From positions 29,872-93,871 of the forward strand of contig JAYUVC010000184.1 in NCBI GenBank assembly GCA_043754325.1: a stretch of DNA of 64,000 nucleotides, written 5' to 3'. Below the pieces are notes generated by a model. It was not told the DNA's origin. It saw only the letters and a list, made by a program, of their open reading frames with translations, and did not search any database. Source of the DNA: Hyphomicrobiales bacterium (GTDB lineage: Bacteria > Pseudomonadota > Alphaproteobacteria > Rhizobiales > Aestuariivirgaceae). Both the position numbers and the translations under genes were made by a program. Below, piece by piece: positions 11,158-57,972 of this stretch. The stretch's first letter is position 1. Each line of letters opens with the position of its first letter.

Positions 11158-11213
11158 AGTTGTGAGGACAGCCTGCGGTATGCGCGTGGTTGTTTGGGTT
11201 GGGAACAATGCAA

Positions 11214-11306
11214 CCTTCGAGGCTCGCAAGGGCTCGCACCTCAGGATGAGGGGGAGTGGTGAGTTCCCTCACCCTGAGGTGCCCGCCCTTTTGCGGGCCT
11301 CGAAGG
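11214..11306. repeat. Palindromic repeat, family C, copy 1
   Basis: CCTTCGAGGCTCGCAAGGGCTCGCACCTCAGG.TGAGG ... CCTCACCCTGAGGTGCCCGCC..TTGCGGGCCTCGAAGG; near-identical to 13200 and 24001. Confidence 0.9.
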
Positions 11307-11310
11307 GCCC

Positions 11311-13137: not shown

Positions 13138-13199
13138 GTGATGTTCTCCTGGAATAGATTCAGTTCATTGTATTATCGAAGTGACGGACTCACAGCGTA

Positions 13200-13292
13200 C
13201 CCTTCGAGGCTCGCAAGGGCTCGCACCTCAGGGTGAGGGTTTCCCCCGTCCCCTCACCCTGAGGTGCCCGCCTTCTTGCGGGCCTCGAAGGG
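13200..13292. repeat. Palindromic repeat, family C, copy 2
   Basis: Same arms and orientation as 11214, different central loop; lies between glmU and glmS. Confidence 0.9.
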
Positions 13293-13305
13293 CTGGTGGG
13301 AAGAG

Positions 13306-17468: not shown

Positions 17469-17488
17469 GGCGGTTTTCTCGCTTGTGG

Positions 17489-17580
17489 AGAGAAAGGGAC
17501 CACATCCGCCCTTCGGGCACCTTCTCCAACGCCCCCTTGCGTTGGAGAAGGTGGCCAAAGGCCGGATGAGGACCCTCTCT
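17489..17580. repeat. Palindromic repeat, family A (CIR-like), collapsed single-hairpin form
   Basis: GGGACCACATCCGCCCTTCGGGCACCTTCTCC..GGAGAAGGTGGCCAAAGGCCGGATGAGGACCC, between the SBP gene and the permease. Confidence 0.85.
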
Positions 17581-17587
17581 CACGGTG

Positions 17588-20622: not shown

Positions 20623-20745
20623 CGTTCCCTCATCCGGCGCTTCGCGCCACCTTCTCCCGCCAAGAGAGGCGGGAGAAGAAAGGTTATTGTCTTCTCCCGC
20701 GCTTCTTGCGGGAGAAGGTGCCCGAAGGGCGGATGAGGGGCAACG
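20623..20745. repeat. Palindromic repeat, family A (CIR-like)
   Basis: CCCTCATCCGGCGCTTCGCGCCACCTTCTCCCG..CGGGAGAAG - 12 nt - CTTCTCCCG..CGGGAGAAGGTGCCCGAAGGGCGGATGAGGGG. Confidence 0.9.
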
Positions 20746-23917: not shown

Positions 23918-24000
23918 GGCGACCTCCAGATGCTTGAACCATAGAGGTTGGTCGTCGTCAGTTAGAATTCAAGGGATTTAATGCATCGGGCGTCAAAAGG

Positions 24001-24092
24001 CCCTTCGAGGCCCGCAAGAGGGCGGGCACCTCAGGGTGAGGGAATACGAATGGTCCTCATGCTGAGGTGCGAGCCCTTTGCGAGCCTCGAAG
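24001..24092. repeat. Palindromic repeat, family C, copy 3 (opposite orientation)
   Basis: Reverse complement matches the 11214/13200 arms; lies just after the parE stop. Confidence 0.9.
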
Positions 24093-26396: not shown

Positions 26397-27827
26397 ATGT
26401 CTACCCATCCCATTCACGCCAACTGGAACGGCCCGATTGTCATGCTGGGCTTTGGCTCTATTGGTCGCGGTTCATTGCCGCTGATCTTGCGCCACATCGC
26501 CTGTGACAAATCGAGGATCACCATCATTGATCCATCAGATGAAAACAAATGGATTGCCGAAAAGGAAGGCATCACCTTTGTGCAATCTGCCATTACGCGG
26601 AAGAATTACAAGAAGCTGTTGAAGCCGCTGCTCACTGCTGGCCCCGGACCTGCTTTCATCGTCAACCTGACGGTGGATGTGGATGCGATGGATATCATTC
26701 GCCTTGCCCGCGACACAGGATCGATATGCCTTGATACAGTGATCGAACCCTGGCCCGGTTTTTATTACAACAAGAATCTGACCAACGCCGACCGCACCAA
26801 TTACGCCATGCGCGAGTTGCTGCTGAAGTTGAAAAGCGAATTGGGCAAGGGGCCGACGGCTGTTTCCTGCTGTGGTGCCAATCCCGGCATGGTAAGCTGG
26901 TTTGTCAAGGATGCGTTGCTGAACCTGGCATCAGACATGAAGATCAAACACGTCAAGCCCACGTCAAGGGACGGCTGGGCAAAGCTGATGCAAAAGGTTG
27001 GCGTCAAGGGCATTCACATTGCCGAGCGTGACACGCAGCGCATCAAAAAACAAAAACCCGTTGATACCTTCCTCAACACATGGTCCGTGGACGGATTTGT
27101 TTCGGAAGGATTGCAACCTGCCGAGATGGGTTGGGGCAGCCACGAAAAGAAACTGCCGCCTGAGGGACGTCGCCACAACCATGGCTCGAAAGCCGCGATT
27201 TATCTGGAACGTCCGGGGGCTGATACCCGCGTGCTGACCTGGACGCCGACGATTGGGGAACATTTCGGATTTCTCGTCACACACAACGAAGCGATTTCGA
27301 TTTCGGATTATTACACTGTCAAAACGGGTCGCGCTGTCACGTACCGCCCGACCTGCAACTATGCCTATCACCCCTGCAACGACGCCATTCTGTCATGGCA
27401 TGAATTGTTGGGGGCTGGTGGCAAGCGGCAGTCGAAGCAACATGTCCTGACCGAAGATGAAATCGCCGATGGCGGCGACGAGCTTGGCGTGTTGATGTAT
27501 GGCCACAAGAAAAACGCCTATTGGTATGGCTCAAAACTTTCAATCGACGAAGCGCGGGCACTGGCACCCTATCAAAATGCCACGGGCATGCAGGTCACGT
27601 CAGCGGTGTTGGCGGGCATGGTGTGGGCCATCGAGAACCCGGATTGTGGTATTGTTGAAACCGACGAGATGGACCATGTGCGCTGTCTCGAAGTGCAGCG
27701 CCCCTATCTGGGCAAACTGGCTGGATATTATACCGACTGGAATCCGCTTTCACAGCGCGTGCAGTTTTTTGATGAGAAGCTGGACCGGAAGGATCCATGG
27801 CAGTTTTCGAATATTTTGATGCGTTAG
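26397..27827 (+). CDS. hss: Homospermidine synthase
   Basis: GFGSIG, GANPGMVS, NTWSVDG, HNEAISI, YAYHPC, NATGMQV, DPWQF. Confidence 0.95.
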   Translation: MSTHPIHANWNGPIVMLGFGSIGRGSLPLILRHIACDKSRITIIDPSDENKWIAEKEGITFVQSAITRKNYKKLLKPLLTAGPGPAFIVNLTVDVDAMDIIRLARDTGSICLDTVIEPWPGFYYNKNLTNADRTNYAMRELLLKLKSELGKGPTAVSCCGANPGMVSWFVKDALLNLASDMKIKHVKPTSRDGWAKLMQKVGVKGIHIAERDTQRIKKQKPVDTFLNTWSVDGFVSEGLQPAEMGWGSHEKKLPPEGRRHNHGSKAAIYLERPGADTRVLTWTPTIGEHFGFLVTHNEAISISDYYTVKTGRAVTYRPTCNYAYHPCNDAILSWHELLGAGGKRQSKQHVLTEDEIADGGDELGVLMYGHKKNAYWYGSKLSIDEARALAPYQNATGMQVTSAVLAGMVWAIENPDCGIVETDEMDHVRCLEVQRPYLGKLAGYYTDWNPLSQRVQFFDEKLDRKDPWQFSNILMR

Positions 27828-27828
27828 C

Positions 27829-27940
27829 CACCCCCTCCCCCCTTCGGGGTACTCCCCCGGCAAGTGGGCCGAGGGAGAAATGATTGACTATCTCCCTCGG
27901 CTTTTGGGCCGGGGGAGTACGGCGAAGCCGGGAGGGGGTG
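27829..27940. repeat. Palindromic repeat, family B variant
   Basis: CACCCCCTCCCCCCTTCGGGGTACTCCCCCGG ... CCGGGGGAGTACGGCGAAGCCGGGAGGGGGTG, starting 2 bp after the hss stop. Confidence 0.85.
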
Positions 27941-29766: not shown

Positions 29767-30401
29767 TGCAGAAGATTTCCATTGACGTTATTTCAGACGT
29801 GATTTGCCCTTGGTGCTTTCTCGGAAAACGCAGACTGGACAAGGCGATAGCTTCTGTTCCTGAGCTACAGGTGGAGGTGAATTTCCGTCCGTTTTTCCTC
29901 GACCCTACGATCCCCGCTGAGGGTCTGGACCGACATGCCTATATGGTCGCCAAATTTGGCGAAGAGCGTTTGAAAACCATCCACGAGCCGTTGATTGCGG
30001 CGGGCAAGGAAGATGGTGTTGCTTTTGAGTTTGATAAAATTACTCGCACGCCAAGTTCCGTAAACGCTCACCGCTTGCTGCGCTGGTCCCACTTCATCGG
30101 CAGTCAACGCACCGTCGCCGAAGCGCTGTTCACAGCCTATTGGAGCTGGGGTCAGGATATCAGCGATATTGAAGTGCTGAAGACAATTGCCATTGTGAAT
30201 GGCTTGAACGGGTCAGAAATTGCCGAGGAATTGGCGACTGACCGCGACAAGGCAGAAGTGTTCGAGGAGGCGCGGCTTGCGCAGGAAATTGGCGTGACGG
30301 GTGTGCCGACATTTGTAGTGAACCGGAAATATGGCGCCACGGGTGCACAGCCTGTGGAATCGCTGGTGGCCTTGATACGCAAGGTGGCGGGGGAAAGTTA
30401 A
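29766..30401 (+). CDS. DsbA/FrnE-family oxidoreductase
   Basis: SDVICPWC, GVTGVPTF, GAQP. Confidence 0.92.
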   Translation: MQKISIDVISDVICPWCFLGKRRLDKAIASVPELQVEVNFRPFFLDPTIPAEGLDRHAYMVAKFGEERLKTIHEPLIAAGKEDGVAFEFDKITRTPSSVNAHRLLRWSHFIGSQRTVAEALFTAYWSWGQDISDIEVLKTIAIVNGLNGSEIAEELATDRDKAEVFEEARLAQEIGVTGVPTFVVNRKYGATGAQPVESLVALIRKVAGES

Positions 30402-30522
30402 GGGACCTCATCCGCCCTTCGGGCACCTTCTCCAACAAGAGGGTTGGAGAAGGGGCAGCGGGTTTCCCTTCTCCCCGCCCCCTTGCGTGGAGAAGGTGGC
30501 GCGAAGCGACGGATGAGGTTCC
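30402..30522. repeat. Palindromic repeat, family A
   Basis: GGGACCTCATCCGCCCTTCGGGCACCTTCTCC ... GGAGAAGGTGGCGCGAAGCGACGGATGAGGTTCC, abutting the dsbA stop and convergent with mfd. Confidence 0.9.
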
Positions 30523-34334: not shown

Positions 34335-36437
34335 ATGCGCCCTGATCTGCTCAACCCCCTGTTTGCCGATGTCACCAGCCTGAAAGGTGTGGGCGACAAG
34401 GTGGCGAAACTGTTTCAGAAAGTGCTGCACAAAGGGGCAACACCTGCCCGTGTTGTGGATTTGCTGCTGCGCCCGCCCGTGGCTGTGGTGGACCGCCGTT
34501 ATCGCTGCACAATCAGTCAGTTACCCGAACAAGGTATTGTGACAGTTGAAGTGATGGTTGGCGAACATATCCCGCCAAAGCAGGGCAGCAAGCTGCCCTA
34601 TCGCGTTGAAGTGTTTGACGATACAGGTGAAATGACGCTGGTTTATTTCAAGGCCTATGCCGACAGCATGAAAAGCCTTTTGCCCACGGGTGAGCGTCGC
34701 ATTGTCTCAGGGGAGATCAGCTGGTTCCGGGCCGATGCGCAGATGAACCATCCCGATCATGTGGTGACGGTTGACGCTTTCGCAAATCTGCCTGCGATTG
34801 AACCTGTTTATCCCCTCACAGCGGGGTTGACAGGAAAGGCTTATCTGAAAGCCGTGCAACAGGCCCTGCCCCGCTTGCCGCATCTGCCGGAATGGCAGGA
34901 CATGGCATGGATACAGAAGAATGGCTGGCAGGGGTTTCACGACAGTCTGACGTCCGCACATGTGCCGCCCGCGCCCAATGCCGTGGACCTGATGCACCCG
35001 GTGCGGCAGCGCCTCGCCTATGACGAACTCTTGGCCAATCAATTGGCGCTGGCCATGGTGCGGCGGCACATGAAGCGCTCATCTGGCCGCGTGCTCAAAG
35101 GTGATGGCCAGCTCCGCTCCAAAATCATCGGCACATTGCCCTATCGCATGACGGGTGCGCAAGACGCTTCGGTACACGAAATTGCGGTTGATATGGCATC
35201 GGGCCAACGCATGATCCGCTTGCTGCAGGGTGATGTGGGTGCGGGTAAAACCGTGGTGGCTTTGATGGCACTCGCCATTGCAGTTGAAGCAGGAGCGCAA
35301 GGGGCCTTGATGGTGCCCACGGAAATTCTGGCGCGGCAACACATGGCATCGTTGGGCAAGATTGCGGATGCAGTGGGTTTACGGTTGGGGTTGCTCACGG
35401 GCCGCGAAAAAGGCCGCGTGCGGGAAGAGGTTTTGGCGGCACTGGCGTCGGGCGAAATTGATATTCTCATCGGCACGCATGCGCTGTTTCAGGAGGGTGT
35501 GACCTTCAAGGATTTGGGCCTCGCTGTCATCGACGAGCAGCACCGCTTTGGTGTGCATCAGCGGATGGCACTGCAGGGCAAGGCGCAAATGGCACCGGAT
35601 TTGTTGGTGATGACGGCAACGCCCATTCCCCGCACACTTGCCCTCACCGCCTATGGCGATATGGATGTGTCGCGCCTGCTTGAAAAACCACCGGGTCGTT
35701 TGCCAATTGAAACGCGGGTCATGCCGCTGTCGCGCATGGATGACATTGTTGCGGGCCTGCGTCGAAGCCTGTCGCATGGCCTTCGGGCTTACTGGGTGTG
35801 TCCGCTTGTTGAGGAAAGCGAGTTTGTGGATTTGGCGGCGGCGGAGGATCGCTTCACGCATCTGGCCACGGCATTCCCCGGCAAAGTGGGGTTGGTGCAT
35901 GGCCGCTTGAAGGGGCTGGAACGCGACAAGGTGATGGCTGATTTCAAGTCAGGAGCCTTGTCAGTTCTGGTGTCCACGACGGTCATCGAGGTGGGCGTTG
36001 ATGTGCCGGAAGCCGCCATCATGGTGATCGAAAATGCCGAACGTTTTGGCTTGGCCCAATTGCACCAGTTGCGCGGACGTGTGGGACGCGGCACCGCGAA
36101 ATCACATTGCATATTGTTGTATCAGGAACCACTGGGCGAAACCGCGAAGGCACGATTGGAAATCATGCGCTCGACTGAGGATGGTTTTGTGATTGCCGAG
36201 GAGGATTTGCGTTTGCGTGGGGCCGGTGAAGTGTTGGGCACGCAGCAATCCGGCTTGCCTGAATTTCGCATGGCGGATTTATCCGTGCATGCGGAGTTGC
36301 TGGCGGCGGCGCGGGATGATGCAGCCCTGATCATCAACCGGGATGAACGCCTGCAAACACCACGCGGCGAAGCGCTTCGGCATTTGCTGTATTTGTTTGA
36401 ACGGGATGAGGCCATCAGGTTGTTGGGGGCGGGGTGA
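34335..36437 (+). CDS. recG: ATP-dependent DNA helicase RecG
   Basis: QRLAYDE, QGDVGAGKT, DEQHRFG, QLHQLRGRVGR, STEDGF. Confidence 0.98.
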   Translation: MRPDLLNPLFADVTSLKGVGDKVAKLFQKVLHKGATPARVVDLLLRPPVAVVDRRYRCTISQLPEQGIVTVEVMVGEHIPPKQGSKLPYRVEVFDDTGEMTLVYFKAYADSMKSLLPTGERRIVSGEISWFRADAQMNHPDHVVTVDAFANLPAIEPVYPLTAGLTGKAYLKAVQQALPRLPHLPEWQDMAWIQKNGWQGFHDSLTSAHVPPAPNAVDLMHPVRQRLAYDELLANQLALAMVRRHMKRSSGRVLKGDGQLRSKIIGTLPYRMTGAQDASVHEIAVDMASGQRMIRLLQGDVGAGKTVVALMALAIAVEAGAQGALMVPTEILARQHMASLGKIADAVGLRLGLLTGREKGRVREEVLAALASGEIDILIGTHALFQEGVTFKDLGLAVIDEQHRFGVHQRMALQGKAQMAPDLLVMTATPIPRTLALTAYGDMDVSRLLEKPPGRLPIETRVMPLSRMDDIVAGLRRSLSHGLRAYWVCPLVEESEFVDLAAAEDRFTHLATAFPGKVGLVHGRLKGLERDKVMADFKSGALSVLVSTTVIEVGVDVPEAAIMVIENAERFGLAQLHQLRGRVGRGTAKSHCILLYQEPLGETAKARLEIMRSTEDGFVIAEEDLRLRGAGEVLGTQQSGLPEFRMADLSVHAELLAAARDDAALIINRDERLQTPRGEALRHLLYLFERDEAIRLLGAG

Positions 36438-36440
36438 AGC

Positions 36441-36552
36441 AAGGCCCCCCCTCCCCCCTTCGGGGTACTCCCCCAACAAGTTGGTGGAGATGCCTACGGC
36501 TAGTTGCTTCCCCAACTTGTTGGGGAAGTGCCCGAAGGGCGATGGGGGCCTT
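36441..36552. repeat. Palindromic repeat, family B (hybrid arms)
   Basis: Left arm resembles 27829 (CCCCCTTCGGGGTACTCCCCC). Right arm equals the 41212 arm (CTTCCCCAACTTGTTGGGGAAGTGCCCGAAGGGCGATGGGGGCCTT). Confidence 0.9.
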
Positions 36553-36554
36553 AC

Positions 36555-37271
36555 TTATTTCTTCCGTTGTACTTTCTTCGCAACCGCAATCTCCTTCTCC
36601 ACATTTAATGGTGCATCCGGGAACACCAATCCCATCGAGATCACCAGCTTCAAGCCATCCTCCACCGTCATATCCAAAACCTGTACTTCAGTTTCTTTCA
36701 CAAAGAACACATAGCCAGACGTGGGATTTGGCGTGGTAGAGACATAGACCGCATACATCTTCGTGCCCGGCTTCATGCCGATCTGGCCTGAATCCAGTTC
36801 ACGCGAAATAAACGCAACAGACCACGCATCGCGCCTTGGCCATTCCACCAGGCAAACCTTTTTGAAGCTCGCACCCTTCTCCGAAAACATCGTTTCGAAT
36901 ATCTGCTTCGAGCCCTTGTAGATTGACCGCACCACCGGCGTCCGGTTCACAAGGTTGTCCCACCAGCCGATGATGGTGCGGCCCACCAAATTCGCGCCGA
37001 GGAATCCCACCAGCGTGATGAGGGCGAGTGCGAAAACCAGTCCGGTGCCTGGTACCTTGAACGGGAGATAGTGATCAGGATTGTAATTGTTAGGCAGCAG
37101 CGGCTTTACCCATGAATCAAAAAAACCGATAAACCACACCGTCACCCACACCGTGATTGCGACGGGGGCGAGGATGACCAATCCTGTGAAGAAGTAACGG
37201 CGCAAGCGTCCAAACGAGGATTTGGCCACAGGTGCTTCGGGCTTGGTGATTGGAATGTTGTCACTGTTCAT
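36555..37271 (-). CDS. DUF502 membrane protein
   Basis: RYFFTGL..LAP, PVVRSIY...KQ, PTTPNPTSG-like STTPNPTSGY. Confidence 0.9.
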   Translation of the reverse strand: MNSDNIPITKPEAPVAKSSFGRLRRYFFTGLVILAPVAITVWVTVWFIGFFDSWVKPLLPNNYNPDHYLPFKVPGTGLVFALALITLVGFLGANLVGRTIIGWWDNLVNRTPVVRSIYKGSKQIFETMFSEKGASFKKVCLVEWPRRDAWSVAFISRELDSGQIGMKPGTKMYAVYVSTTPNPTSGYVFFVKETEVQVLDMTVEDGLKLVISMGLVFPDAPLNVEKEIAVAKKVQRKK

Positions 37272-40014: not shown

Positions 40015-41108
40015 TGGCTGTTGCAGCGGTTTATTTTGATGGTGAGATTGCGCGTGAGCATGCAGTGACGGTCACTCGTGTGGGTTCGAATCTTGTGTTC
40101 CGGGGGTCTGAGACAACGCCGACCACGTGGAGCATTGCAGGGCTGCACCCGATTGATGCGCCCACACCGGGACAGCCGTTCCGCATTACCCACGACGATA
40201 AACCCGGTGCCAGACTGATTGTGCGCGATCAGGCTTTTATTGACGATCTGGTGGCACAGAACAGTCACCTGAAGGGCGGCTATTCCTGGCGGCATCTGGG
40301 GCATGTATTGGGCTGGACTGCTGCGGGCTTTGCCGGATTGGCAGCACTGGGCTATGTCGCCATGACCGTGCTGCCGCAGCAGGTGGCAGGTCTTTTGCCA
40401 CAGAGTTGGCGGCAGCGCATGGGTGAACAGATCACTGGCTCCCTGGTCGGATCTACAAAAAAATGCGATACGGCAGGCAGCAGAACGGGCATTGCGGCAA
40501 TGGTTGGGGCGTTGGCTGAAAGTGGCGTGGATATTCCGCCCGTACAAATCGACATCTATGACATGGATATGGTCAATGCCTTTGCTGTACCCGGCGGGCG
40601 CATTGTGTTGACGCGCGGGCTATTGAAAGAAGCGTCGGACGCCACAGAGGTTGCTGGCGTGCTGGCCCATGAATTGGGTCATGTTTATCATCTGCATCCC
40701 GAAGCGCAAATGGTGCGCTTTGCCGGTTTGCAGGTTCTGGCGGGTGCGGTTTCAGGCGGTGCCAGTGGCGATCTGGTGTCCAGTGCAGCAGGGCTTGCCG
40801 CCATCCTGCGCTACACCCGGGAAGCCGAGCGGGAAGCTGACACATTTGCACGCGACGTGATGGTGAAGGCCTCGGTAGATCCCATTGGCCTCAAACATTT
40901 CTTTGAGAAACTGATGAAACTTGAAGGCATGAAACCCGGCGCACCTGCCAAAGAGACTTCCGCACTGGACCGTATTGGAAACGTGTTCTCAACGCACCCC
41001 GGCACCGAAGACCGGATCAAGGAAATTCAACCCCTGCCAGCAGGCAAAACGCCGGTGCAGATCATGACGGATCAGCAGTTCAAGGATTTGCAGAAGGCGT
41101 GCGGGTGA
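40014..41108 (+). CDS. M48 family metallopeptidase (usual DUF898 partner)
   Basis: NAFAVPGG, HELGH, REAEREAD, STHP. Confidence 0.92.
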   Translation: MAVAAVYFDGEIAREHAVTVTRVGSNLVFRGSETTPTTWSIAGLHPIDAPTPGQPFRITHDDKPGARLIVRDQAFIDDLVAQNSHLKGGYSWRHLGHVLGWTAAGFAGLAALGYVAMTVLPQQVAGLLPQSWRQRMGEQITGSLVGSTKKCDTAGSRTGIAAMVGALAESGVDIPPVQIDIYDMDMVNAFAVPGGRIVLTRGLLKEASDATEVAGVLAHELGHVYHLHPEAQMVRFAGLQVLAGAVSGGASGDLVSSAAGLAAILRYTREAEREADTFARDVMVKASVDPIGLKHFFEKLMKLEGMKPGAPAKETSALDRIGNVFSTHPGTEDRIKEIQPLPAGKTPVQIMTDQQFKDLQKACG

Positions 41109-41110
41109 AC

Positions 41111-41259
41111 GAAAGGCCCCCATCGCCCTTCGGGCACTTCCCCAACAAGTTGGGGAAGAACTGGTGCCGCCACCTCCCTCATCATGTTCAGGAGAGGTCG
41201 TTCATCGAGTCCTTCCCCAACTTGTTGGGGAAGTGCCCGAAGGGCGATGGGGGCCTTTC
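41111..41259. repeat. Palindromic repeat, family B: perfect 48-bp arms around a 53-bp unique core
   Basis: 41111-41158 is the exact reverse complement of 41212-41259. Confidence 0.95.
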
Positions 41260-41535
41260 TACCCGCAACTCCCTCTCTTCATGCAGCACAAACCATTCCA
41301 CCATTGCCGACCACACTGTGCGGGCCAGATCAGGGTTCATGCCGATCAGTTCCGCGCGGGCGGCTGCATTGTTGATCACTTCGTCGACACGGGACTGAAT
41401 GCGGCCCGGCAGCTTTGTGGTTTTCTTGAAGACCAGAACGTCGCCCACGAGTTTTTCGCGTTTGGCCAAAAGCTCGATCAGTTGAACATCGAGTGCATCT
41501 ATTTGTTTGCGGAAGTCAGAGAGTTGGTCGCCCAT
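41188..41535 (-). CDS. Chorismate mutase (AroQ/PchB-like) with repeat-derived C-terminus
   Basis: LSDFRKQIDALDVQLIELLAKRE, RVDEVI. The last 23 codons and the stop lie inside the 41111-41259 repeat. Confidence 0.85.
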   Translation of the reverse strand: MGDQLSDFRKQIDALDVQLIELLAKREKLVGDVLVFKKTTKLPGRIQSRVDEVINNAAARAELIGMNPDLARTVWSAMVEWFVLHEERELRVERPPSPFGHFPNKLGKDSMNDLS

Positions 41536-43752: not shown

Positions 43753-45186
43753 ATGTCATCGCCTGTTATGTCATCGCCTGTTATTACGCGTTTTGCCCCC
43801 TCGCCCACCGGCTACCTGCATATCGGCGGTGCCCGCACTGCCCTGTTCAACTGGGCCTACGCCAAAGGGCAAAACGGCAAGATGCTGCTGCGCATCGAAG
43901 ATACGGATCGTGAGCGTTATACAACGGGGGCTGTTGATGCCATTCTGGATGGACTGACATGGCTGGGGCTGACGTGGGATGGAGACGCCGTTTCACAATT
44001 TGACCGGGCTGACCGCCATCGGGATGTGGCGCATGATTTGGTGAAACGCGGCAAGGCCTATCATTGTTATTGCACGCCTGAAGAACTTAGCGCCATGCGC
44101 ACCAAGGCGGAAGCCGAAAAGCGCCCGATCCGCTATGACGGCACATGGCGGGACCGCGATGCATCAGAAGCGCCCGCAGATGTAAAGCCAGTCATCCGCT
44201 TCAAGGCTCCACAAGAAGGTGAAACCGTAATCAACGATCATGCCATGGGGCGCGTCGTCATCCCCAACAAGGATCTCGATGATTTGATCATCCTGCGCTC
44301 CGACGGCAACCCAACTTACAATCTCTCCGTCGTCGTGGATGACCATGACATGGGCGTCACCCACATCATCCGCGGTGTTGATCACTTGACGAATGCGGCA
44401 CGGCAAACACAAATCTATCTGGCCATGGATTGGCCCGTGCCATCCATGACACATGTGCCGCTGATCCACGGACCCGATGGTGCGAAACTTTCAAAGCGCC
44501 ACGGCGCCCTCGGCGTCGAAGCCTATCGCGAAATGGGCTATCTTCCCGCAGCGCTGCGCAACTATCTCGCCCGCCTCGGTTGGAGCCATGGCGATGACGA
44601 AATCTTTTCCACCGCACAACTCGTGGAATGGTTCGCCTTGGATGGCATCGGCAAGTCAGCTGCCCGTTTTGATTTTGCCAAACTGGAAAACCTCAACGGC
44701 CATTACATCCGCCACACCGAAGATGCTGAATTGCTGCAAGCCTTCCTCAGCTTCCTGCCCCACGTCTCAGGCGGTGCAGACATGCTCACCCGCATTGACG
44801 ACAGCATGAAAGTCAAACTCTTGAAGGCCATGCCCGGTCTGAAGGAACGCGCCAAAACCCTCGTCGAGCTCAAAACCTCAGCCGCATACCTGTTCGTGCA
44901 ACGCCCATTGGCCATGGACGAAAAAGCCAAGGCCCTGTTGAACGACGAAGGCAAAGCCGCCCTCGCAAGCCTGATCCCCGTCCTTTCATCCACCACCGAA
45001 TGGACCGCCGTAACCTTGGAAGCCGCAGTCAAAACCCACGTTGAAACCACCGGCCAAAAGCTGGGAAAACTCGCACAGCCCTTACGCGCCGCGTTGACAG
45101 GAACATCCACATCGCCAGGGATTTTTGATGTGCTGGAGGTGTTGGGGAGAGATGAGAGCTTGGGCCGGATTGGGGATCAGGCGTAG
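43753..45186 (+). CDS. gltX: Glutamate--tRNA ligase
   Basis: [33 protein letters not shown]. Alternative start 43768. Confidence 0.98.
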
Positions 45187-45219
45187 GGGACTGTTTGCTC
45201 TTTCTCGCAAACTGTCCCC
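45186..45219. repeat. REP-like hairpin (family E) downstream of RAYT
   Basis: GGGGACTGTTTGC-TCTTTCTC-GCAAACTGTCCCC (one T-T mismatch), preceded by GTA; overlaps the gltX TAG. Confidence 0.88.
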
Positions 45220-45231
45220 GAACTGCCCCCG

Positions 45232-45825
45232 TCAAACCACCGCAAATCGCCCCAGTGGTCTGCCACTCGTTTCACTCTTGCGAAGCGCATCCAATCGCGA
45301 TTTCGGCACCTCCCCACCAATGAAAGACGCAAAGTCGAGATAGCGTTGCAATACTGGTTTCACGTCAACCAGCTGATGGGGTTGGCCTGAAACATGCGCG
45401 TGAACGGATGAGTGTGGCCAATCGAAAATGGATGCTGCAATGCCGGCTCTCACTGGGTTTTGCGCTACATATCGTAGGGCATGCGCCAGATGTTCCTCGT
45501 CCATCGGCACAGAACCAAAACGCCCCTGCCACAAATGCCCGGTCCATTTGTGCCGCCAATTGATGAAGTTTGTGTATTTTCGGTGCGCATCGGCAAACAA
45601 TTCCCTCAAACCATTGGCATGGCGCGGCACCACAATCACGTGAACATGGTTGGGCATCAGGCAGTAGGCCAAAATTTTAGTCCCAGATTTTTCTGCGCCT
45701 TCGCCAAGAAACGCAAGATAGCGCGCGTAATCTCCATCTTCAAAGAACACCGGTTCGCGCCTGTTTCCCCGCTGGGTAACATGATGCGGCACATCGGGGA
45801 TGACAATACGGGCAATACGGGCCAT
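45232..45825 (-). CDS. REP-associated tyrosine transposase (RAYT, HUH Y1)
   Basis: [20 protein letters not shown] (HUH), [26 protein letters not shown] at 45825 with GGAG SD. Confidence 0.92.
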
Positions 45826-45843
45826 GGACAGAACTCCAGATCC

Positions 45844-45952
45844 GGGACAGTTTACTTGAGATCGGGGACAGTTTACTTTTCCGATGAGGTGTATGTCCAT
45901 AGTAAGACAATCAACAAAAGTAAACTGTCCCCGATCTCAAGTAAACTGTCCC
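45844..45952. repeat. Perfect 37-bp inverted repeat with 35-bp spacer upstream of RAYT
   Basis: Each arm is a tandem pair of GGGACAGTTTACTT with a 21-bp period. Confidence 0.95.
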
Positions 45953-46017
45953 TACCCGTCAGCCACATTGACCTTCTTGTTGCGCTGCAATATCATGCCC
46001 TGAAATGGGAGATCATC

Positions 46018-55171: not shown

Positions 55172-55259
55172 GGGGACTGTTTGCTCTTTCTTGCAAACTG
55201 TCCCCGAACTTCCCGGAAATCGCAGACCAGGGACAGCTTGCGATAGAGCAAGCAGTCCC
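55172..55259. repeat. REP doublet (REPIN-like), family E, cognate to the RAYT flanks
   Basis: 55172-55214 matches 45186-45228 at 41/43 nt. A second, inverted copy at 55230-55259 (GGGACAGCTTGCGATAGAGCAAGCAGTCCC). Confidence 0.9.
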
Positions 55260-57745: not shown

Positions 57746-57972
57746 ACTCCGTTCCCCTTGTGGGCAGGACTATCGCATATGGGGAAAAAGCGACCTCATC
57801 AGCCCTTCGGGCAGCTTCTCCAGAGGAGAAGCGACGCGGTTTGGGACCTTCTGAAATGCCTGATACTGGGGGGATATCTTCAATCCAGTCGCTTCTCCTC
57901 TGGAGAAGCTGCCCGAAGGGCTGATGAGGTCTTTCCTTGGCCATATCCGATAGCCCTCCCCAAAAGGGGGGA
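57746..57972. repeat. Extended family-A palindromic element (MITE-like)
   Basis: Perfect 44-bp arms 57792-57835 / 57888-57931, a 52-bp core, and about 40 bp more of degenerate outer arm on each side. Confidence 0.88.

Follow-up and report, generated by a model that had tools for sequence, protein, structure and literature searches.

A probable TIRtron between gltX and gltA of a Hyphomicrobiales bacterium, bracketed by hairpin repeats with a dispersed variant

Between gltX, the gene for glutamyl-tRNA synthetase, and gltA of a Hyphomicrobiales bacterium lies a gene for a 197-residue HUH/Y1 nuclease that belongs to the TIRYTs. These are genes resembling RAYTs, the tyrosine transposases associated with repetitive extragenic palindromic (REP) sequences, but flanked by terminal inverted repeats (TIRs) instead of GTAG REPs, in units called TIRtrons (Di Nocera, De Gregorio, Rocco 2013, BMC Genomics 14:522; PMC3733652). 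We analysed this gene within a stretch of 64,000 nucleotides (contig JAYUVC010000184.1, positions 29,872 to 93,871), hereafter the window, whose first letter is position 1. The locus is probably a TIRtron, namely, a single-copy, chromosomally fixed TIRYT gene bracketed by hairpin copies of its own recognition repeat. The protein has the fold and the catalytic residues of its class as well as clear TIRYT membership; the gene is bracketed by its cognate repeat, one form of which makes up a dispersed, high-copy REP family with a conserved mismatch; and it is fixed in its place and under purifying selection. The locus is thus a further example of the TIRYT/TIRtron kind already described, and not a new architecture.

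The nuclease and its affiliation

A preliminary description of this DNA, made from its letters, had recognised an HUH/Y1 transposase-like gene of the RAYT type. The former part holds: Pfam detects Y1_Tnp (4e-12) in the 197-residue protein, the HUH motif (H60-V-H62) and Y119 are intact, and H60, H62 and Y119 are invariant among the aligned homologues. The affiliation to RAYTs in the strict sense had to be given up. In BLASTP comparisons with published TIRYT and RAYT sequences (Additional file 5 of PMC3733652), residues 1-192 were 47-53% identical (E 1e-60 to 1e-74) to the TIRYTs gsu2396, mlo6832, ccr1445 and bbt5382. With the RAYTs eco b228 and pfs3939, the protein shared no more than 24-30% identity. 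The best NCBIfam match, REP_Tyr_transpos (NF047646), reached 66.7 bits, under its cut-off of 80, and transpos_IS200 (NF033573), with 13.3 bits, fell far short of its own cut-off of 55. Among solved proteins, E. coli TnpA_REP is the nearest in sequence (4ER8, E = 1.3e-5), and an AlphaFold2 model of the protein, built with 52 homologues (pLDDT 91.4), had as its best Foldseek match the same enzyme together with a REP hairpin (4er8_A, E = 7.5e-9, TM 0.77), followed at ranks 2-30 by ISDra2 and IS608 TnpA. An exact-protein look-up of the 197-residue open reading frame (ORF) returned no record.

Of the 26 published TIRYTs, 20 fall in TnpA_Y1 subclass 2.1, whose members are long and widespread across phyla, with a core extension that carries a conserved Ser (Quentin, Siguier, Chandler, Fichant 2018, BMC Genomics 19:475; PMC6006769). 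This subclass probably corresponds to TIRYT, and the window protein is linked to it indirectly, via those 20 sequences; it shows DWPHSS, matching the conserved Ser of the core extension. For the C-terminal extension of the subclass, the same authors reported, by their own profiles, helix-turn-helix (HTH)-like similarity to Bac_DnaA_C, HTH_23 or HTH_28, and they found no REP-like sequences near subclass 2.1 genes (PMC6006769). The window departs from this description in that a REP of a high-copy family adjoins its gene. With E values up to 1, Pfam returned only Y1_Tnp, and no Bac_DnaA_C, HTH_23 or HTH_28 signal, in the window protein and in six full-length relatives, nor did it show an HTH domain in the tail of those six.

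Most homologues have 213-230 residues and end in ...GRPLGxxxWxxxLExxxGRxLxPxKRGxKPK, whereas the window protein ends at residue 197 without this tail, which confirms an earlier suspicion that a basic tail is missing. The absence of these ~25-30 residues is a trait of the whole clade found between gltX and gltA (7 proteins of 196-207 residues). In the relatives that have it, the tail resembles a short basic peptide of the AT-hook type (KRGRP/KRGPKPK). That its loss is tied to the loss of a TTAATT box in the repeat is an impression only.

The bracketing repeats and their dispersed copies

The anatomy of the element (Table 1) is largely as first described. The upstream flank is an inverted repeat with 37-nt arms that are 100% complementary, with 35 nt between them, and each arm holds two units at a 21-nt period, so that GGGACAGTTTAC occurs exactly four times (at 45844 and 45865 on the plus strand, and at 45920 and 45941 on the minus strand). 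The degenerate third unit is also real: 45833-45853 is 86% identical to 45854-45874 over 21 nt, and spans both the Shine-Dalgarno-like GGAG and the ATG. On the other side, a 34-nt hairpin, GGGGACTGTTTGC-tctttctc-GCAAACTGTCCCC, with an 8-nt loop and a T·T mismatch in its stem, is fused to the gltX stop codon, whose G (45186) is the first base of the hairpin. As had been noted, the two flanks share a core, GGGGAC(A/T)GTTT(A/G)C, and differ elsewhere. The core is present on both sides of the gene and in both orientations; with up to two mismatches it has 10 matches in the window, where 3.2 are expected, and none of 100 shuffles reached 10. The octamer GGGGACAG lies at 45864-45871, its complement at 45925-45932, and the 3' hairpin has GGGGACAG on the minus strand. 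Folded as single-stranded DNA, the 109-nt upstream element has -45.8 kcal/mol (z = -13.2) and the 3' hairpin -13.9 kcal/mol (z = -5.7). Rfam gave only sub-threshold chance matches for the long hairpin (Alpha_RBS, 26.4 against 38; MIR168, 25.5 against 66), and a terminator scan of the locus found no T-run terminator.

Table 1. Features of the element, its neighbours and related repeats, in window positions.
Feature	Position	Strand	Remarks
gltX, glutamyl-tRNA synthetase	43753-45186	+	ORF list; TAG stop 45184-45186
REP unit at 3' end of TIRYT gene	45186-45228	.	hairpin 45186-45219 plus conserved GAACT tail
TIRYT-type HUH/Y1 nuclease gene, 197 residues	45232-45825	-	HUH residues 60-62, catalytic Tyr 119
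Degenerate third tandem unit adjoining the start codon	45826-45843	-	contains Shine-Dalgarno-like GGAG (-12 to -9)
Gene-proximal arm, upstream hairpin	45844-45880	.	two GGGACAGTTTACTT units: 45844-45857, 45865-45878
35-nt loop of upstream hairpin	45881-45915	.	carries -35-like element of candidate promoter
Distal arm, upstream hairpin	45916-45952	.	two inverted units: 45918-45931, 45939-45952
gltA promoter TTGACC-17-TATCAT	45968-45996	+	just beyond the element, intact; gltA start 46018
Dispersed REPIN-like doublet, same repeat family	55172-55258	.	without adjacent nuclease gene; variable spacer
Second palindromic family, copies	17479-17581, 20628-20738, 27826-27940, 30385-30518, 36426-36555, 41108-41260, 57754-57969

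The repeat is not confined to this locus. Between a small membrane-protein gene and tsf, the segment 55172-55214 is 95% identical to 45186-45228 and opens a doublet whose second hairpin (GGGACAGCTTGC..GCAAGCAGTCCC) is inverted relative to the first; the doublet folds with -25.6 kcal/mol (z = -6.3). Six doublets of ~90 nt were found in an Aestuariivirga metagenome-assembled genome (MAG). When contigs of four sediment metagenomes (runs X1-X4) were placed on the locus and their word depth was counted, the bin 45182-45228 stood at 775-2727 against ~5-20 in the flanks, with many contigs diverging into unrelated sequence at 45185/6 and 45221/4. Both hairpins of the doublet likewise stood at 800-1470 against ~10, and the spacer between them at 0-38. 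The body of the TIRYT gene has the same depth as its flanks. No base variant in the hairpin stem reaches 10% in these contigs and the T·T mismatch is invariant in 8/8 aligned REP copies, which makes the mismatch a conserved feature of the family. In Mesorhizobium, Aquibium, Halieaceae, Woeseiaceae, Caldilineaceae and others, the exact 14-mer GGGACAGTTTACTT also forms solitary hairpins that have no gene next to them.

Two further points concern the same contigs and copies. An origin of the doublet as a deletion derivative akin to a miniature inverted-repeat transposable element, with its spacer taken from the 3' end of the gene, was ruled out, as the spacers differ among seven doublets. Some low-depth contigs (runs X3 and X4) skip 78-80 nt within the gene (45545-45626). 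As their shorter side matches over no more than 23-41 letters, they may represent paralogues of other organisms instead of variants with a deletion.

Other palindromes also occur in the window. A second dispersed, intergenic family, built on the core CCTCATCCGCCCTTCGGGCACCTTCTCC with arms that reach 82 nt, has no associated gene that we could see, and it recurs at loci L002 and L003 of the Aestuariivirga MAG. A third family, CCCTCACCCTGAGGTGCCCGCC...GCGGGCCTCGAAGGGC, has three copies (11205-11309, 13192-13293 and 23995-24078), and a lone palindrome at 2903-2986 has 39-nt arms that are 90% complementary around a 6-nt loop.

Family-wide anatomy and history of the gltX-gltA slot

More than 7900 TIRYT relatives were retrieved from many phyla, and homologues of 45-67% identity are present in hundreds of genomes of Alpha-, Gamma- and Deltaproteobacteria, Acidobacteria, Planctomycetes, Nitrospirota, Elusimicrobia and others. 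Most of 148 homologue loci show an inverted pair of GG(G/T)GAC(A/G)nnT(A/T)nn(TTAATT) around the gene, with one member upstream and its partner at the stop codon or across it. A complete hairpin on either side is found in every relative of at least 67% identity and in several distant ones, and tandem iterations of the upstream repeat, up to five copies, are common. Hairpin flanks and tandem units are therefore nothing out of the ordinary in this family. Only the nesting of two units per arm is particular to the window strain.

Positions relative to the ATG were surveyed at 158 homologue loci (L007-L086 and L287-L374). The TIR anchor peaks at -54/-55, TTGA[CT] starts at -36 to -34 in 48 of the loci (background 0.7 per position) and TAnnnT starts at -12 in 55 of them (background 2.8 per position). 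A strict promoter test was passed by 22/158 loci, compared with 0.86±0.9 in shuffles. This geometry implies that the TIR of a TIRYT gene typically adjoins a sigma-70-type promoter and that the mRNA would be leaderless. As far as we searched, the arrangement is not described in Di Nocera 2013 or Quentin 2018. It amounts to a prediction for the family, namely, TIR from -55 to -37, -35 element at -35, -10 element at -12, and translation starting where transcription starts. In the window, the candidate promoter on the minus strand is TGGACA (45899-45894, in the loop)-18-TAAACT (45875-45870, in the inner proximal unit).

The preliminary description had also proposed that the gene interrupts the gltX-gltA pair, and comparison with empty sites bears this out. 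No TIRYT homologue was found at the gltA loci of relatives (0/80). In the two closest genomes, L207 (gltA 90% identity) and L222 (Aestuariivirga sp., 81%), a gap of ~60-105 nt separates gltX from gltA, without a TIRYT gene, while the gltA promoter TTGACC-17-TATCAT is conserved in the window, L207 and L222. Absence of the gene from these genomes, together with the retained promoter, shows the element to be an insertion between the gltX stop and the gltA promoter. The gltX orthologues of L207, L222 and L288 are 79-92% identical to that of the window.

A metagenome scan for close relatives gave nothing above 62% identity; the close relatives were obtained by exact look-ups of protein matches. Four metagenomic relatives, L287, L288, L370 and L371, have a TIRYT homologue in the same slot and orientation, and the insertion is therefore not recent. 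Their gltA or gltX proteins are ~82-92% identical to those of the window over long alignments, with gltX of L370 at 74% over 145 residues and short gltA N-terminal fragments at up to 97%. The same REP hairpin as in the window abuts or overlaps the gltX stop in L288 and L371, and L370 is similar. The TIRYT proteins that share the slot form one clade with 99% bootstrap, all of them tail-less. Nonsynonymous differences (pN 0.14-0.19) are far below synonymous ones (pS 0.73-0.86; pN/pS ~0.2), which indicates purifying selection; as synonymous sites are saturated in every comparison, these values give neither an absolute dN/dS nor a date. Within the 64-kb window there is no second copy of the gene.

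Within the clade, the upstream flank of the gene has changed over. It is a GTTTAC hairpin with a 4-nt loop in L287 and a 37-nt loop in L370, it has a 35-nt loop and doubled units in the window, and it is a GTTTGC REP in L288 and L371, where the amplified GTTTGC REP stands on both sides of the gene. We infer that the doubled units and the GTTTAC/GTTTGC asymmetry of the window reflect local turnover, by tandem duplication and REP replacement, rather than a new design. In a sister strain, the slot holds another insert: along a contig of run X3 (2086 nt, depth 20), the match to gltX ends at 45179 and the match to the window returns at 45950, after 1041 letters of different sequence. We also considered whether the outer ends carry a target duplication of TA or GTA. 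TA lies directly against the G-run at either end of the element in the window and L371, at one end in L288 and in few dispersed copies, and we do not claim such a duplication.

Two observations on relatives are recorded here in their own right. In L287, the TIRYT ORF runs into the hairpin and stops inside it; at 2472-2502 of this locus, the convergent TIRYT and gltX ORFs both end inside one 31-nt hairpin, overlapping by 9 nt, so that the last residues of both proteins are encoded by the repeat. In a sister clade (P0020 and P0009, ~70% identity), the TIRYT gene lies beside a gene for an ABC-F type ATPase on two independent contigs (L289 and L372/L373), flanked on both sides by GTTTAC hairpins, which suggests a second conserved chromosomal slot beside the ABC-F type ATPase gene.

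Competing readings, proposed mechanism and significance

Likeness to the published TIRtrons lies in the protein, 47-53% identical to the listed TIRYTs, in GGGGACAG, which fits GGGGWSAS, and in the inverted-repeat bracket with a 3' repeat that abuts or overlaps the stop region. The preliminary description had called the architecture unusual, a claim that does not survive this comparison: bracketing GGGGWSAS repeats, a motif shared by the majority of TIRs, were described in 2013, many TIRs occurring as dimers or clusters, some TIRs being self-complementary or double-palindromic, and some TIR families being dispersed (PMC3733652). The locus differs from the TIRtrons in that its clade lacks the C-terminal GRxLxPxKRGxKPK tail of the aligned TIRYTs, a tail not stated as defining by the authors; in that both flanks are complete local hairpins and not single TIRs, the upstream one with two units per arm and a degenerate third; in the high copy and conserved T·T mismatch of the dispersed form of its repeat; and in a GGAG leader that replaces the leaderless geometry of the family. 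In outline, the locus is like the RAYT-REPIN systems (Nunvar 2010; Bertels & Rainey 2011, PMC3116915; Bertels 2017, PMC5581495; E. coli TnpA_REP structure 4ER8, PMC3479197): a single-copy HUH/Y1 gene, passed on vertically, lies between palindromic repeats of its own, one form of these repeats is dispersed in high copy as inverted doublets of ~90 nt with an imperfect stem, and 4ER8 is the best structural match; however, its protein belongs to another clade, there is neither a conserved GT[AG]G foot nor conservation of the residues that read GTAG, and the repeat core is conserved across phyla rather than lineage-specific. What it shares with the TnpA of the IS200/IS605 group (IS608, ISDra2) is the HUH/Y1 fold; it differs in falling far under the cut-off of the NCBIfam IS200 model, in not being multi-copy in 64 kb and in occupying one site across the clade.

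These comparisons bear on how else the locus might be read. A canonical RAYT REPtron, with a GTAG-guided RAYT flanked by GTAG-tagged REPs and cleaving beside them like E. coli TnpA_REP, would fit the palindromes around the gene, one of them dispersed, the closeness to 4ER8 among solved proteins, the rank of REP_Tyr_transpos among NCBIfam matches, and the GTAG that the preliminary description had pointed out at both outer ends. This tetranucleotide is literally there (45183-45186, and as the reverse complement of 45952-45955), but it is not conserved at the other 7 copies of the repeat: the four positions 5' of GGGGAC vary across all 8 aligned REP copies, and GTAG is absent from the outer ends in L287, L288, L370 and L371. 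Its G is the first G of the GGGGAC run, and at the left end its TAG is simply the stop of gltX. TnpA_REP reads GTAG through E100, H101 and R104, and the TIRYT group does not conserve these residues (published alignment, HMMER alignment, PMC6006769). We do not regard GTAG as a functional foot, and with the sub-cut-off NCBIfam score and the higher identity to TIRYTs than to RAYTs, this reading is very unlikely. We consider highly improbable, too, an autonomous IS200-like insertion sequence that recently transposed into the gltX-gltA spacer. The size of the element (~770 bp), its single ORF and the subterminal hairpins close to both ends do resemble IS200, the gene is missing from the spacer in 80 relatives including the two closest genomes, and the X3 strain has its different 1041-nt insert at the same site; but slot, orientation and the junction of gltX stop and REP are common to four relatives with saturated synonymous sites, the proteins form a single well-supported clade with pN/pS of ~0.2, the transpos_IS200 score is a fraction of its cut-off, and neither a second copy in 64 kb nor an excess of gene-body coverage over the flanks was seen.

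Two other readings were weighed. The gene could encode a domesticated DNA-binding or processing factor with a host role unrelated to REP spread, for example, at the replication fork, in recombination or in regulation, with the REPs spreading otherwise and the flanking hairpins being ordinary REPs. Its single copy, vertical inheritance and purifying selection would suit such a role, as would the difference between the amplified GTTTGC form and the GTTTAC units upstream of the gene, the presence of at least two other palindromic repeat families in the window without a nuclease gene, and the report by Quentin et al., who found no REPs for subclass 2.1 and proposed diverse roles. Even so, we find it unlikely, because homologues of 45-67% identity from different phyla are bracketed by this same core, which is hard to explain without recognition by the protein, because in L288 and L371 the amplified GTTTGC REP flanks the gene on both sides, and because the catalytic HUH and Tyr residues are strictly conserved. 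Least probable of all is a decaying relic, that is, a 3'-truncated, inactive gene whose hairpins act only as terminator or mRNA stabiliser for gltX and as insulation for gltA. The missing basic tail and the exact coincidence of the 3' hairpin with the gltX stop, a site at which REPs frequently stabilise mRNA, speak for decay, but the tail-less state is clade-wide, pN lies far under pS, both the catalytic residues and the predicted fold have been preserved, and the terminator scan gave no T-run terminator.

The TIRtron reading, which we prefer, has its own difficulties. In the metagenomes, the GTTTAC units upstream of the gene show no excess; every dispersed copy seen is of the GTTTGC type with the mismatch, and GTTTAC-type units were seen only beside TIRYT genes. 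The amplified form is therefore not that of the gene's own upstream units, which are perfectly paired. Metagenome depth pools several organisms, and run X1 has the REP but not the window strain, so copy number in the source genome is only an estimate, from 2 sites in 64 kb. The window locus departs from the leaderless geometry of its family, with a leader bearing GGAG at -12 to -9 instead, and its candidate promoter is a consensus match only (9/12). The lack of the gene in L207 and L222 may reflect loss there or later gain elsewhere, and without its tail the enzyme could be less active or act differently. Finally, our literature search found no biochemical characterisation of any TIRYT, and binding, cleavage and REP mobilisation are for this reason argued by analogy only.

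IS608 and ISDra2 TnpA recognise hairpins on single-stranded DNA. By analogy with these enzymes and with E. coli TnpA_REP, the TIRYT protein would bind the REP hairpins when they are folded on single-stranded DNA, and would then cut and rejoin beside them, thereby spreading or maintaining the REP/REPIN population, while the gene itself, as a domesticated TIRYT, would no longer move. The nested four-unit hairpin over the promoter and 5' leader might in turn allow the protein, or extrusion of a cruciform, to limit expression of the gene. Such autoregulation is plausible, because protein on the units, or a cruciform, would sit over the candidate promoter and leader, and it gains some support from the TIR-promoter geometry that is fixed family-wide. 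We would go one step further only tentatively, at rather less than even chances: the tail-less TIRYT, kept vertically at gltX-gltA in an Aestuariivirga-related clade of Hyphomicrobiales, might be the dedicated enzyme of the high-copy mismatch REP/REPIN population, with the nested hairpin as its operator. If this were true, it would be an independent alphaproteobacterial counterpart of the RAYT-REPIN association of gammaproteobacteria, and one that arose within an HUH subclass for which REPs were reported absent.

The general picture of such elements is unchanged by this finding. TIRYTs are nevertheless among the largest bacterial groups of HUH/Y1 'transposase' genes, and, on the same tentative reading, a TIR at a fixed distance from the promoter of a leaderless mRNA across the family would imply that autoregulation is an ancestral trait. 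The locus provides a compact test case, with a tail-less enzyme of 197 residues, two hairpin substrates, one perfect and one with T·T, a dispersed high-copy family, and natural sister strains with differing flanks at one site. It could reveal whether TIRYTs process their repeats as single-stranded hairpins, in the manner of RAYTs, and whether the tail, or the A/G and A/T positions of the stem, set their specificity.

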